Shown: one piece after another, positions 1-8,136 of the stretch
Layout of the letters: each line of letters begins with the position of its first letter
Position numbering within the stretch: position 1 is the stretch's first letter
From: an uncultured archaeon
Lineage (GTDB): Archaea > Asgardarchaeota > Jordiarchaeia > Jordiarchaeales > Jordiarchaeaceae
Length of the DNA: 8,136 nt
Reading direction: 5' to 3'
Assembly: GCA_964510585.1 (NCBI GenBank)
Contig: CAZECW010000115.1
Location: forward strand, 1-8,136
The notes under the pieces: model-generated
The model's input: only the letters and a program-made list of their open reading frames with translations
What the model was told of the DNA's origin: nothing
The model's database searches: none
Program-made: the position numbers and the translations under genes

Positions 1-218
1 AGCTGAATTCTTTATAGAAGCAATATGCATGATTGGAGAAATAAGAAAAAAAGAAGAAGAAAAAGAAAAATATCCGGCTAAAAAACCCATAAAGGGTACC
101 AGAAAAAAGTGAAAAATAAAGCGAAACAGAGAAAACACAAAAGTGGAATTTTGGTTATGGAACGGAATGTTTGGTAACGAAACTTAACGAAAGCTGGAGC
201 TATAAAACGATAATAATT

Positions 219-2908: not shown

Positions 2909-2995
2909 AAACATCAAATTTTTTGATTGAAAAACCAACCGTATTTAGTACCAGAACCTATCGACTTGGAAATTTTATTAGTGGTGAAATGTGGT

Positions 2996-3436
2996 ATGAA
3001 GTTAGGCGAGTTTCTGGAGGAAAGAGCAAGGCTCATAAAAGAGATTTGTAGTCTCGAGGAGCTGCGAAGCATGGAATTCCGCGAGTTGAAGGACAGTCCC
3101 TCTGAGGTGAGGTTCAAAGACATAACAGAGCAAATTAACCAGAAGAGAAAGGAGCTTCGAGAACTTAAACTTAGGCTGATGAAACTCAATCTCTCCACGA
3201 AGATTCCTGGGCATCCAGAAATAAGCAGCATGATGGAGCTTAACCTGAAAATTGCCGACATCATTGAAGAGATACGCTGTCTCCGCTCACTTGATCCTCA
3301 CTGTTCATACGGTAGTGAAATCCAACCCCAGCTTTCCCCAAAAGAGCTGAGGAGGATATTAAACGATCTGGTTCGAGAGAAGGTACGCTTAGATGTGCTG
3401 AGAAAAATGACTAACTGGTCGACAGAGGTTGAATAA
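2996..3436 (+). CDS. DIP1984-like all-helical coiled-coil protein, about 146 aa, function unknown
   Basis: Begins MKLGEFLEERARL (family pattern MKLAEAL..RA.L) and has the central ...L..LKLRLMKLNLST and C-terminal RLD....TNWSTEVE (family LD..IQ..NW.TE[LV]). ATG2996 has GGTGA at 2983-2987, so the 2927 extension is probably not translated. Confidence 0.7.
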   Translation: MKLGEFLEERARLIKEICSLEELRSMEFRELKDSPSEVRFKDITEQINQKRKELRELKLRLMKLNLSTKIPGHPEISSMMELNLKIADIIEEIRCLRSLDPHCSYGSEIQPQLSPKELRRILNDLVREKVRLDVLRKMTNWSTEVE

Positions 3437-3970: not shown

Positions 3971-4017
3971 TTTGAGTATCGTAAATTTAGAGAGGATTGG
4001 TTTTCGATAAGAGAGGT

Positions 4018-4815
4018 ATGAAATTGGCTGGTGGGATTCCCTTCTTTAAAAGTGGTTCAATAACTATTTACAATGATGACATTTTGAAGATAGATGCTAT
4101 TGAAGGTGATAGCATTGACCTCATAGTCACCTCGCCACCGTATGGCGTAGACATAAAGTATGAAAATTACAACGATAACATACCATATGACAGGTATTTG
4201 GACTTTACAGCTGAGTGGCTAAAAAAATGTTTAAACTTGGTTAAGCCTGATGGGAGATTATGCCTAAATATTCCCCTAGACAAACTTAAGGGCGGAGGAC
4301 AAAGCGTATACGTGGACATAACAAGCATCGCCAAGAAAGTTGGATGGAAATACCACACAACAATAATCTGGAACGAACAAAACATTTCTAGGCGAACAGC
4401 CTGGGGCTCCTGGCTCAGTGCATCGGCCCCCTTCGTCATAGCACCCGTAGAAATGATAGTGGTCATGTACAAGAAACAATGGAAGAAAAAACACAAAGGA
4501 ACATCCGACATAAGCAGAGAGGAGTTCCTGGAATGGACAAACGGTGTATGGAACTTTGGCGGTGAGAATAGAACCAAAATAGGTCACCCCGCACCCTTCC
4601 CAGTCGAACTCCCCAAAAGGTGTATAAAGCTATTCAGCTTTGTAGAAGACGTTGTTCTAGACCCATTTCTCGGCAGTGGATCTACCCTGATAGCATGCCT
4701 AGAAACAAATAGAAAGGGTATAGGAGTAGAAATCAACAAAAACTATTGCGAACTAGCAGTAAAAAGATTAAAAGAATACGGAATACTACAGAGGAAACTA
4801 GTAGAAGTTCTGTAA
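4018..4815 (+). CDS. Site-specific DNA methyltransferase, N4-cytosine/N6-adenine type, beta class, about 265 aa
   Basis: Catalytic motif IV DLIVTSPPY is N-terminal, followed by HPAPFPVELP, with SAM-binding motif I VLDPFLGSGST and GVEIN C-terminal (beta order). The start could be 3997, 4018 or 4024. Confidence 0.95.
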   Translation: MKLAGGIPFFKSGSITIYNDDILKIDAIEGDSIDLIVTSPPYGVDIKYENYNDNIPYDRYLDFTAEWLKKCLNLVKPDGRLCLNIPLDKLKGGGQSVYVDITSIAKKVGWKYHTTIIWNEQNISRRTAWGSWLSASAPFVIAPVEMIVVMYKKQWKKKHKGTSDISREEFLEWTNGVWNFGGENRTKIGHPAPFPVELPKRCIKLFSFVEDVVLDPFLGSGSTLIACLETNRKGIGVEINKNYCELAVKRLKEYGILQRKLVEVL

Positions 4816-4871
4816 CCTCAATAAACTAAAAGGGAATTGCAACTCGCTTTTTGGGAGGGGGAAGTAACACC

Positions 4872-5480
4872 ATGAGTTTGGAAAAACCAACAATTGGAGA
4901 TCTAATTATGGAATACTTCCGCAAGCATCCCAAAGAGGATTTAAAACACGGTCCAGTAGTAGACTACGTAGAAGAAAAGTACTTCAAAATATACGGTCGT
5001 AAACCAAGAGATACTTGGAGACAGATACGTAGATTGCATCAAGAAGGCATTCTGATAAAAGTAAAAAAAGGAGTCTACAGATACGACCCCGACTACATCC
5101 AACATAGGGAACTTTATGATTTTCCACCTGAGGTCAAAGAAGAAATTTTCAAAAGGGACGGTTACAAATGCGTAATTTGTGGTAGGGGAAAAGGGGAGGG
5201 CATGGAACTACACGCTGACCACAAAATACCAATAGAAAAAGGAGGTACAAACACTCTTGATAACGGTCAAACCCTCTGCTCAGAACACAACTTTTTGAAA
5301 AAAACATACTCACAGACAGAGTTCGGCAAAAGATTCGTAATAAAACTCTACGAAGACGCAGTAAATAAAAACGATGAAAAAATGATAAAATTCTGCAAGG
5401 AAATCTTCGAAACCTACAACAAATACGGAATAAACAGGCACATACCACGGCCCAACCACAAACAGGATAAAATAGTCTAA
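4872..5480 (+). CDS. HNH endonuclease, probable cognate type II restriction endonuclease, about 202 aa
   Basis: RDGYKCVICG...LHADHKIP..KGGTNTLDNGQTLCSEHNFLK is an HNH (beta-beta-alpha-Me) motif with Zn ligands. An N-terminal wHTH-like region (IRRLHQEGILIKVKKGVYRY) precedes it. It starts 56 nt after the MTase stop, with GGAGG upstream of ATG4872. Confidence 0.88.
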   Translation: MSLEKPTIGDLIMEYFRKHPKEDLKHGPVVDYVEEKYFKIYGRKPRDTWRQIRRLHQEGILIKVKKGVYRYDPDYIQHRELYDFPPEVKEEIFKRDGYKCVICGRGKGEGMELHADHKIPIEKGGTNTLDNGQTLCSEHNFLKKTYSQTEFGKRFVIKLYEDAVNKNDEKMIKFCKEIFETYNKYGINRHIPRPNHKQDKIV

Positions 5481-5747
5481 CTAATGATTGCGAGTAAGTT
5501 TATGGCATGCCTGCTCCGGTGCAACAACTTCCGCATAATTTTGCTTTTTTCAAAATATTTATGTCGAAAATTTCAAATCTGGTTAGTTTCCTCTCCTCAG
5601 AACTCCAAAAAAGAGGGGAAGACAATTTCCATAAATGTAAAAGAAAAAATTCGGGGAAAAAATAATTAAGCCTCTTATCCCCTAATTTTTTAGAAAAAAT
5701 ATGGGATGGTAAACTGTTTTGAAATTTTTTGAATGGGGTTTGGGACT

Positions 5748-6224
5748 ATGAAGGTGTGGATTACCACTGTTGGAACAAGCGTGTTTGCGGTTGTTAATCC
5801 GGTTTGGGCTGCTTGCATTCTTGACGGCTTTGTTCCTGAGCGTGTCCATCTCTTGAAGAATGAGAAGATTGAGGGCAACGTGCAAACTGTGAAGAATTGG
5901 TTGACCAGCATTCTTGAGTGCTTCGGTGTGCGCCCAGAGTTCCATGAGCATGATGCGGATGAGGATAACATGGACTCTTTTGCAAGGACTCTAATTAGTG
6001 TTGTGAAATCAGAGGTGGGCAACGAGGTTGCTGTTGATATGACTCCGGGAAGAAAATTTATGAGCGCCTGCGCCATGGCTGCTGGGCAGAAGTTTCGGGT
6101 GAGCAAGCTTTACTATCTCCATCTTTATAATTTGGCTTATCAGGAGAAACCTCTCATTTTGATTCCCTTTAACCAGCAAAAACTAATTAACGTTTTAAAT
6201 TATACTGGAGGGGTCCCAGAGTGA
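5748..6224 (+). CDS. Stand-alone CARF-domain protein (ring-nuclease-like or ligand sensor), about 158 aa
   Basis: MKVWITTVGTS (motif I), VPERVHLL, VAVDMTPGRKFMSA (motif II; TPGRK at 6042-6056), LYYLHL. There is no fused effector domain. ATG5748 is preferred over ATG5733. Confidence 0.82.
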   Translation: MKVWITTVGTSVFAVVNPVWAACILDGFVPERVHLLKNEKIEGNVQTVKNWLTSILECFGVRPEFHEHDADEDNMDSFARTLISVVKSEVGNEVAVDMTPGRKFMSACAMAAGQKFRVSKLYYLHLYNLAYQEKPLILIPFNQQKLINVLNYTGGVPE

Positions 6225-7297
6225 ACCAGTTCCTAATCCCCCTTAACGAAATGTTCCTATTTTTGAACGGTCTATTTCTGACTGGTGTCCGCAGATTTAC
6301 TGTAAAGTCTCTCCTCCTGAACCAGGAGCTATTCCGCGTGACACTGAGCGGCGTCGGAGAAAAATCCGAGTTAACTGGATTAGTCGAAAATGAGACCTAC
6401 GAACAGCTGAGAAACAATTGCTGCGAAGTTATCGGTGAAATCCCCACCTACACAGATTATCTCAACGTGTTCCTTGCTTCTGGCATAAACAAGCCAAAAG
6501 ACTGGCCTCAGATAAAAGAGCGCATAGTTAAATTTTTGGACCGTGACCCCCTCCGCGGAGAGAGATCTGTTTTCATTTCCTTCGATACCAACGCGCTGAG
6601 AAGAAGGTACTACACCCTAATTTCAAATCTCCTAATCACGGAAAACGCCCGAAGGAGAGCCAGACCCCTGAGGGCGGGGTTTGCAGTCTCAACCGGAGTA
6701 AGGAATGAACTGGAACGTTTCGACGCCAAATACAGTGAGTCAGACGTTTCATCAATGAGCAGGATACTCGGAGTGCAACGCGAAATTCTCGACGAATTCT
6801 TCAACCAGCTAAAACTCGGAGCACGCCTATCCAAATTAGGCTACACAGAATACCTCAAAATACTCAAACAAGAATACACCGAAGAATTAGAAGGAAAACC
6901 CGGCGACATACAAATAATTGAAACTCTGGAAAGCTTCTCCAAGCGTAGAAACGTAGACATACTAGTTTTAAGCGAAGACTCCGACTTCATTCAAAGAGCA
7001 AACACAAGAAAACTAACGGGAATAAGACTCGACCGCCCAACAAATCCCCCCCAAAAAACAGAAACCAACTGGGAAGACATCGCCCAACTCCTCTACACCA
7101 CCGCCACAACCTACGGAGCCATAACCCTAACCGCAAAAACAAGCGCAAAAATCTACGGCATATGGAAAGGAAAAAAAGCAGAAAACTGGCAAACCGAATC
7201 ACTAAAAATAACCACAGACGACACCACACTACAAGAAATCCTAGAAAAAAACCAGAAAATACTCGAAAAACAAAAACACCAAAACAAAACCACATAA
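6221..7297 (+). CDS. PIN-domain protein (predicted RNase) with N- and C-terminal extensions, 358 aa
   Basis: PIN acidic tetrad is intact: ISFDTNAL (D122, nt 6584), VRNELE, PGDIQII, VLSEDSDF. The GTG start overlaps the TGA stop of the CARF gene (GTGA, 6221-6224). Confidence 0.82.
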   Translation: MNQFLIPLNEMFLFLNGLFLTGVRRFTVKSLLLNQELFRVTLSGVGEKSELTGLVENETYEQLRNNCCEVIGEIPTYTDYLNVFLASGINKPKDWPQIKERIVKFLDRDPLRGERSVFISFDTNALRRRYYTLISNLLITENARRRARPLRAGFAVSTGVRNELERFDAKYSESDVSSMSRILGVQREILDEFFNQLKLGARLSKLGYTEYLKILKQEYTEELEGKPGDIQIIETLESFSKRRNVDILVLSEDSDFIQRANTRKLTGIRLDRPTNPPQKTETNWEDIAQLLYTTATTYGAITLTAKTSAKIYGIWKGKKAENWQTESLKITTDDTTLQEILEKNQKILEKQKHQNKTT

Positions 7298-7390: not shown

Positions 7391-7879
7391 GAAAGAAGGC
7401 ATAAAAATTTTCTAGGCGCACCCTCCGATTTCTGAATAGTTGAACGCAGAGACCCCACAAAAAATGGCTTAACACTCAGTTGCGAAAGAAGCCATACCAA
7501 GGCCTCCTTCTAGCAAAGAATAATTTTATACATGGGAACAGGCTATTTTTTTGAGCCAAACTGATGCGCTCTCCACAAATTTGCAATAGAAACTAGGCTC
7601 AAAAATTGGAAATACGCAAATCTAAAAATTAAAAACCACCCGGGAAAATGTGAGGAGATTCTGTGGATTTCAAGTGGAGGGGAACCGAATCAGATTGGCG
7701 GAGTCAAAAGAGGGAGACTTTGTGATGCCGCCCTGATAATTGTTGGCTACTTTTTCAAATGGTCATCGGCATCTTTGGCGATTTTTTCTGGTTTCGGGGA
7801 AGCCCTCGGGTTTTTATAATAACTTTTTTGTTTAATAAATAGAATCTGAACACTACAAAGTTTCCACCTGAAATTTAGG

Positions 7880-8100
7880 AAAACCGAAAACATCAAAAAA
7901 ACAGGAAAAAACCCAAAAAAACAAACAAAAAAACATAAAACCCAAAAAACCACAAAGAAAAAAAATCAAAGAAAAAAACAAAAAACAAAAAACAAAAAAA
8001 CCAAAAACAATAAAAAAAGATTCTCCAACACCAAAACAACACAACACAGCAACCAAAAATCTCAAAAAAACCAAAAAAGACATAAAAAACCTTCCCCACT
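7880..8100. repeat. Extremely A/C-rich low-complexity non-coding tract (A-runs punctuated by C)
   Basis: Hand count for 7901-8020 gives only 8 G+T in 120 nt. Degenerate CAAAAAA units, with no exact periodic repeat. Confidence 0.75.
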
Positions 8101-8136
8101 ACTCGAACACATTTATAAAGAACACACATTTTACCC

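Follow-up and report, generated by a model that had tools for sequence, protein, structure and literature searches.

Archaeal proteins that carry a CARF domain and a PIN domain on one polypeptide were already catalogued in 2014, according to the accessible part of that survey (PMC4012209). They are now listed as Crf6, a CARF+PIN type that is typically not CRISPR-associated, in a table row that bears the ring-nuclease tag 's,e,r' and that is itself silent on two genes (PMC12669027 Suppl. Table 2). For a fused CRISPR PIN enzyme, the accessible parts of two reports describe activation by cA4-dependent oligomerisation, which reconfigures active sites across subunits (10.64898/2025.12.27.695470), and cutting of RNA upon phage detection (10.64898/2026.09.30.754977). 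To judge from the titles of PDB entries, the CRISPR PIN enzyme of Wang et al. (2025; NAR gkaf744) is probably SiRe_0806 of Sulfolobus islandicus, which has been solved in the apo form (PDB 9JXW) and with cA4 (PDB 9JXX). Another fused relative, ST0035, was weakly cross-linked to cA4 and was not activated by it, as stated in the accessible part of the report (PMC6546367).

The locus described here lies in an 8,136-nucleotide window, i.e., the whole stretch of DNA analysed, which is the entire contig C115 of a 3.78-Mb, 217-contig, 96%-complete Jordarchaeia (Asgard) genome, G000. SiRe_0806 is one chain of ~420-429 residues, whereas the same succession of CARF, docking, PIN and C-terminal domains is distributed here over two chains of 158 and 358 residues. 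Ligand and activation have been shown for SiRe_0806, as far as the accessible sources go. The reading that we favor, with a probability of about 0.68, is that the two chains form a CARF2:PIN2 Crf6 unit, an RNase of type III CRISPR defence that would be activated by a cyclic oligoadenylate (cOA), probably cA4. The features of the window, all on the forward strand, are as follows.

171-1241, +, CARF5/Crn1-like CARF with a DUF2103-like C-terminal part (PF09623, E 2e-23; PADLOC CARF5, E 8e-48)
1395-2366, +, CARF3-type protein (PDLC01864, E 3e-68)
3997-5480, +, N6/N4 DNA methyltransferase and HNH nuclease (PF01555, E 2e-48; PF01844, E 4e-9)
5748-6224, +, CARF gene from ATG 5748 to TGA 6224, 158 aa, putative stand-alone CARF_m1 (Crf6) sensor (PADLOC PDLC01973 positions 1-147, E 3e-47)
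6048-6056, +, G101-R102-K103 of the CARF protein, conserved in 22, 21 and 22 of 22 split CARFs
6156-6176, +, CARF residues 137-143, segment predicted to dock on the PIN protein (lowest-error predicted contacts)
6207-6224, +, Shine-Dalgarno-like GGAGGGG (6207-6213) and GTGA start/stop overlap (6221-6224), read from the sequence
6221-7297, +, PIN gene from GTG 6221 to TAA 7297, 358 aa, extended PIN nuclease (PDLC01973 positions 172-458, E 1e-35)
7676-8120, +, likely CRISPR leader region, by alignment to the PIN-to-array interval of locus L003

Several genes precede the pair. The protein encoded at 171-1241 also matches CARF7-DUF2103 over 256-354 and has Ser and GRK motifs; as a candidate for a ring nuclease or a Cami1-like protein, it is preferable to the CARF encoded at 5748. 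The CARF3-clade protein at 1395-2366 has a possible C-terminal helix-turn-helix, and 2927-3436 encodes a helical protein, its true start perhaps near 2996, with weak, below-cut-off similarity to DIP1984/DUF6847. The genes at 3997-5480 interrupt the series of CARF genes and likely form a restriction-modification pair.

The CARF and PIN genes are in different frames and share the GTGA overlap of 4 nt that an earlier note on this DNA had reported, with 7 nt between GGAGGGG and the GTG start of the PIN gene. An alternative in-frame ATG is available to the CARF gene at 5733; all four close CARF homologs serving as seeds start with MRVW, as does the product initiated at 5748. The junction points to translational coupling of the two genes, and -4 overlaps are found at 8 of 25 Asgard split loci. 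The earlier note had also described one compositional gradient, suggestive of one transcript. Indeed, third-position G+T falls from 0.78 to 0.05 across both genes with no reset at the junction, where the jump (-0.175) is of a size equalled or undercut by 13% of 254 coupled pairs vs. 3% of the 699 pairs of same-strand genes separated by 150-800 nt. The gradient thus fits one transcript. A 5'-to-3' fall of this kind is seen genome-wide, in 74% of 2803 ORFs of G000, and resets in that genome between distant genes and not between coupled ones, so that it is usable as an operon marker. A scan of the window with a sigma-70 promoter/terminator model, which leaves archaeal promoters uncovered, gave matches at chance level.

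One fused-protein HMM (PDLC01973, CARF_m1-PIN) spans both ORFs in order, and by sequence the CARF and PIN proteins each match one half of a single fused family in the catalogue, CARF_m1/Crf6 CARF+PIN. The hallmarks of Crf6 found here are a CARF of the CARF_m1 clade and an extended PIN with its tetrad; the single-chain fusion is replaced by two ORFs. The CARF is assigned to CARF_m1, a clade reportedly defined by Makarova in 2020, far ahead of CARF_m3 (E 4e-7) and CARF_m13 (E 1e-3), and it also matches the stand-alone CARF_m1 models PDLC01972 and PDLC01971 (E 4e-38 for PDLC01972). Its motifs comprise G9/N17, D97-x-T-P-G-R-K103, Y123-x-H-L126 and a C-terminal I139-P140 segment; the GRK is presumably the ligand-pocket motif, as in other CARFs. 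Matches of TAL-effector and ribosomal proteins to the CARF profiles were rejected as low-complexity noise. For the 358-aa protein, Pfam and NCBIfam name no PIN family. It has an N-terminal docking domain (1-115), a PIN core (~116-273) and a C-terminal domain that holds G313-x-W-x-G-K318, i.e., ~115 residues before the core and ~85 after it. Its acidic tetrad, already noticed as intact, is D122, E163, D229 and D253, kept in 120, 120, 121 and 121 of 121 aligned homologs (mostly 320-400-aa matches, plus 11 locus copies).

SiRe_0806 is the top solved structural match of both AF2 models (pLDDT 95 for the CARF, 97 for the PIN protein). The CARF model superimposes on its residues 1-138 (Z 16.1, rmsd 2.3, 138 aligned), a Z within 1 of those for Can2, VC1899 and Cad1 (15.1-15.4), and residues 1-356 of the PIN model superimpose on 152-420 (Z 16.9, rmsd 3.1, 249 aligned; runner-up 11.3); Foldseek gave E 3e-7 to 9JXX. 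Sequence identity to SiRe_0806 is only 15-21%. A profile built from 13 fused homologs ranked SiRe_0806 first (E 6e-10) and aligned with it the DxTPGRK motif, which reads DITPGRKYM there, and the C-terminal 'P-F-x-Q' segment. The narrow profile A1 of the PIN protein had no PDB match, whereas wider profiles and folds do match. Split and fused members have DxTPGRK, YxxL..P and the junction helix in common. As the two models tile SiRe_0806, the boundary between the genes corresponds to its linker, and the fused enzyme has the PIN 'extensions' as well. Thus, the contrast with fused effectors drawn in the earlier note is not supported, both halves belonging to a fused family (PDLC01973/Crf6) with a solved relative.

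How common the split form is was examined in several samples. PDLC01973 is matched in 37 of 301 sampled Asgard genomes. Among 44 loci examined besides the window (4 plus 40 further stretches), 25 are of the split type, their CARF gene lying immediately upstream of the PIN gene (five of these are broken or cut), and 14 are fused; four have a PIN without an upstream CARF (two are weak matches, and the remaining two share a genome that has CARF_m1 elsewhere), and one has an unrelated CARF. At L052 the CARF lies on the far side of a cas1 gene from the PIN gene. A metagenome scan with a second sub-alignment yielded 15 loci, namely 8 split, 6 fused and 1 cut by a contig end. At the protein level, 116 of 162 homologs (the best 150 of 218 plus a second search set) are PIN-only, with 300-420 aa and no CARF; in this same set, 30 are shorter, 10 have a detected CARF, and 6 are longer with no CARF detected. 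The nearest named homologs are from Jordarchaeia/Freyarchaeia, Asgard archaea, and the ten cluster proteins looked up include PIN-only members from Methanosarcinales/ANME and a 517-aa member from Haloplanus. Viral contigs scanned with profile A1 gave 99 pattern matches, none of them a relative.

Fused homologs at 14 of the 44 loci, and L004, where a single in-frame stop separates the CARF and PIN halves, might be taken to mean that an assembly error, or the decay of a fused gene, has produced the split. This is barely credible, as the split form accounts for 25 of 44 Asgard loci and 8 of 15 metagenomic ones and most of the homologs just described are PIN-only. Moreover, the junction is reproduced with 0 differences (5708-6753) in a contig of the independent run X2, and a diverged contig of run X4 has a 1-base change at 6215 and still two frames among the differences listed; run X1, possibly the window's own source, was excluded from this support. 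The five copies found in the same genus are likewise all split and show RBS-like purine runs together with overlapping or abutting start and stop codons. Broken copies were of no use as natural knock-outs: the break in the PIN gene of L040 is an N gap, and the frameshifts in the PIN gene of L003 and the CARF gene of L048 are possible sequencing errors.

The trees of the CARF and PIN proteins (31 rows) have the same main clades, and the fused rows cost at least three changes on each; they are midpoint-rooted 'quick' trees with long-branch warnings, from which the direction, fusion or fission, is not readable, and they omit the broken or cut split loci L003, L040, L048, L067 and L068 and the cut or broken fused loci L056, L059, L061 and L062. 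Pairwise identities of the CARF and PIN proteins are correlated over 20 split pairs (Spearman 0.76; 0 of 5000 permutations), although such Mantel figures, like co-occurrence counts, overstate because kin are not independent. The sequence correlation shows co-inheritance, not binding. The conserved two-gene module supposed in the earlier note was thus found in both samples, with its genes inherited together.

A second CARF-PIN operon of this genome may have had another fate. L075 (G000:C136) has three CRISPR repeats at 32-389, and its 38-nt first spacer recurs after the third repeat, where it continues directly as the 3'-terminal part of a PIN paralog of the second clade. In runs X1 and X2, one contig spans the repeat end and the spacer at ~2x flank depth; the contigs of runs X4 and X5 have PIN-coding sequence instead upstream of the point where spacer and PIN gene join. 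Either a self-derived spacer may have been acquired and the operon then lost by recombination between spacer and protospacer, or the assembly may be chimeric.

Physical association of the two chains was addressed by a 2:2 structure prediction, as the earlier note had proposed, with CARF 1-152 and PIN 1-347 and their own alignments. An interface was predicted, with a score of 0.72 compared with 0.20 for the best control; the score mark is one that 116 of 157 solved pairs attain, as do 2 of 215 mismatched ones, rates that are only roughly valid for this prediction. The runs agree in at least 89% of contacts, with a partner pLDDT of at least 86. The likeness to the solved SiRe_0806 may account for the success of the prediction. 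On the CARF side, the predicted contacts are 137-143 (plus 20, 24, 51-59, 73-74 and 127-135), and on the PIN side they are 9-20, 42-47, 143, 283-285 and 343-347. In the model, CARF segment 137-143 would dock on the PIN helix 9-20, W284 and 343-347, which would rebuild the contact bridged in SiRe_0806 by a linker of ~13 residues. I139 and P140 are each kept in 18 of 22 split CARFs, and N16 of the PIN protein is conserved in 111 of 121 homologs; among fused proteins, the equivalents of P140 and N16 are nearly or fully invariant, the proline being nearly invariant across the 13 fused homologs. The proposal that the PIN extensions form a docking surface is supported in that the N-terminal helix and the C-terminal region take part in the predicted interface, but these extensions are family domains common to the fused enzyme, not special additions.

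In VapBC modules, a small gene lies upstream of a coupled PIN gene, and the CARF-PIN pair resembles them in having a coupled small gene before that of a PIN RNase with an acidic tetrad. By analogy, the pair might be a ligand-gated toxin-antitoxin system, in which the PIN protein would be active alone, restrained by the apo CARF and released by cOA. The gene order, the predicted interface, and the presence of a CARF directly before the PIN gene at 25 of 29 non-fused PIN loci agree with this idea, which we nevertheless regard as unlikely. The upstream gene encodes a DNA-binding antitoxin in VapBC and a folded nucleotide sensor here, and the PIN protein, whose model matches VapC chains with Z 6-7, has three domains here and makes its confident predicted contacts away from the active site. 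The antitoxin reading is weaker because those contacts omit D122, E163, D229 and D253, an argument of limited weight given that residues not named among the contacts are uncertain. In addition, cA4-dependent oligomerisation activates the fused relative, according to the partial account cited above, L048 has a frameshifted CARF (possibly a sequencing error) beside an intact PIN gene, and the four PIN loci mentioned above lack an upstream CARF, two of them being weak matches and two belonging to a genome with CARF_m1 elsewhere. Of the two roles in trans that had been suggested for the CARF, sensor or antitoxin, the first is favored and the second is the less likely, the best reading being that the CARF is an activating subunit.

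In Crn1 ring nucleases, the Ser and Arg-Lys residues are catalytic. Like the CARF described here, Crn1 proteins (Sso2081, Sis0455; CARF_m13) are CARF-only and have both motifs, and G9-T10-S11 and G101-R102-K103 are present as the earlier note had stated, so that the CARF might mainly be a Crn1-like ring nuclease, with the PIN protein a separately acting, co-transcribed nuclease. Sso2081 matches the CARF profile (E 5e-8), the CARF model matches the Crn1-type structure 7YGH (Z 13.1), and the 's,e,r' tag of the Crf6 row (PMC12669027 Suppl. Table 2) would agree with such an activity. However, Ser11 is conserved in only 11 of 22 split CARFs and is missing from three of the four closest homologs, and because of this poor conservation the hint of Crn1-like activity is weak. 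The NCBIfam Crn1 model scores 12.7 bits, below its cut-off of 125, and Crn1 is assigned to another clade, CARF7/CARF_m13, not CARF_m1, in the accessible parts of two classifications (PMC12409355; PMC9638899). Unlike Crn1, the CARF has a dedicated nuclease partner, to which fusion in relatives and the predicted interface tie it. This explanation is thus very improbable, although slow, self-limiting cleavage may occur within the complex.

The neighbourhood survey that the earlier note had called for in order to look for a link to cas10 showed that the pair is often tied to type III CRISPR. Cas10 palm-2 was detected in 57 of the 301 genomes. Of 24 genomes that carry a split pair, 16 have it, compared with 35 of the 264 that lack the family, a difference that the kinship of the genomes inflates; no Cas10 match was found in the other 8 of the 24 (completeness 82-96%). 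Around the 25 Asgard split loci, where 224 neighbours were scanned at E 1e-7 on contigs many of which are short, a cas gene lies within ~4.5 kb in 9 cases (Cas10 in L045, L048 and L063). Two CARFs and an array are present at L039, the array of L004 is at a distance of 7 kb, and L054 has a Cas10 ~9.5 kb away; 3 loci have only other CARF or Crn2-type genes nearby, and at 10 no cas gene, array or other cOA gene was found nearby. Among metagenomic split pairs, 6 of 8 are in or beside cas operons, and in four cases the pair follows immediately on a type III RAMP cluster and is itself followed by a Csm6-type HEPN gene.

The window holds no cas gene. Its genome has a Cas10 with GGDD (G000:C108) and a Cmr locus, and its copy of the pair groups with the TPGRK clade found in or beside cas operons (L003, L045); similar split pairs in or beside cas operons are those of L048 and L077-L085. 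Both traits that mark type III ancillary effectors are found, since the genome encodes a Cas10 with a cyclase motif and the pair is linked to cas loci. In particular, the last 450 nt of the window align to the interval between PIN gene and array in L003 (70% over 461 columns, E 1e-47, low-complexity filter off), so that the pair likely precedes an array here too. A 21-mer near the end of the leader candidate recurs ~90 nt before a repeat on G000:C130, and a 606-nt contig of run X2 (depth 5.79) matches both window positions 7445-7500 and a repeat start, if, as we infer from equal length and depth, the two X2 listings are one record. From these sequences, an array likely starts just beyond the contig end.

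Part of the evidence would also suit the same two-chain enzyme with a ligand that is not a Cas10-made cOA, such as an RNA end or a different nucleotide, cyclic or linear. The table row cited above gives Crf6 as mostly unlinked to CRISPR, ST0035 was not activated by cA4 according to the partial account of it, one clade of fused genes that lies behind a metallo-beta-lactamase gene in 9 genomes is accompanied by Cas10 in only 1 of them, and some split loci are found among helicase/PLD/methylase defence genes, one of them beside a SMODS gene. For the window copy, such a ligand is nonetheless doubtful: this copy belongs to the TPGRK clade of cas operons and likely abuts a CRISPR leader, and its genome combines the GGDD Cas10 with only a below-cut-off SMODS match.

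Several neighbourhoods are of interest in their own right. In the fused clade made up of L041-L044, L046, L047, L049, L056 and L059, a metallo-beta-lactamase-fold gene comes directly before the fused gene in 9 of 9 cases, and SurE is next in 4; this is a candidate non-CRISPR nucleotide-sensing RNase operon. Divergent split pairs (L064, L066, L070, L073 and L074) occur near radical-SAM/SF1-helicase/PLD/ThiF/DndB genes, some with a second, HFX_2341-type CARF, and these neighbourhoods are possibly a distinct defence island type. At L063, a SMODS nucleotidyltransferase gene (5309-6232) ends 150 nt from the split pair, with Cas6 and a Csm1 domain nearby; it is a possible second signal source. L053 encodes one 700-aa chain, whose close relatives L057/L058 are cut elsewhere: one gene encodes 304 aa with the CARF and an extra domain, and the PIN protein has a gene of its own, adjoining a Crn2-type (PF08960) gene; in P0039 and P0087 the extra N-terminal part is on the PIN protein instead. 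By eye, the extra part of the L053-type proteins may resemble a winged helix.

In the favored reading, that of a two-chain, cOA-activated Crf6 RNase, translational coupling would keep the amounts of the two chains matched, and the chains would most likely assemble constitutively. By analogy with the fused relative, the complex would be latent before the signal. Cas10-made cA4, probably the ligand, would then bind the CARF dimer and drive a higher-order assembly that turns on the PIN sites, and RNA cleavage would slow or kill the infected cell. A more speculative proposal is that the two-gene form is ancestral to Crf6 and was fused at least three times independently, the free CARF being a detachable subunit that restrains the PIN protein until cA4 appears, with sensors swappable between paralogous nucleases, i.e., a toxin-antitoxin system wired to the CRISPR alarm. 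Taken as a whole, this proposal is probably incorrect.

The family itself is already known, since it is catalogued, its fused member SiRe_0806 is solved and CARF-only CARF_m1 profiles exist. No account or test of a two-gene CARF+PIN system was found in the literature covered, a coverage that does not extend to the clade-defining work of Makarova in 2020 and by which absence is not proven. The remark in the earlier note that such a pair had not been characterised biochemically accordingly stands for the split form in the literature searched, but not for the fused form, at least from the accessible parts of the reports cited above.

If the two-chain reading is true, the pair would be a CARF-nuclease effector with its sensor and its nuclease on separate polypeptides. 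The two could be purified, titrated and swapped separately, making it testable whether the ligand activates the nuclease by assembly or by lifting inhibition. Because fused copies occur in at least three places on both trees, the pair also bears on the origin of fused CARF effectors. Finally, in contrast with the Crf6 listing, split copies outnumber fused ones in the present sample and often lie in type III loci, so that type III operons do contain some members of a family classed as 'typically not CRISPR-associated'.
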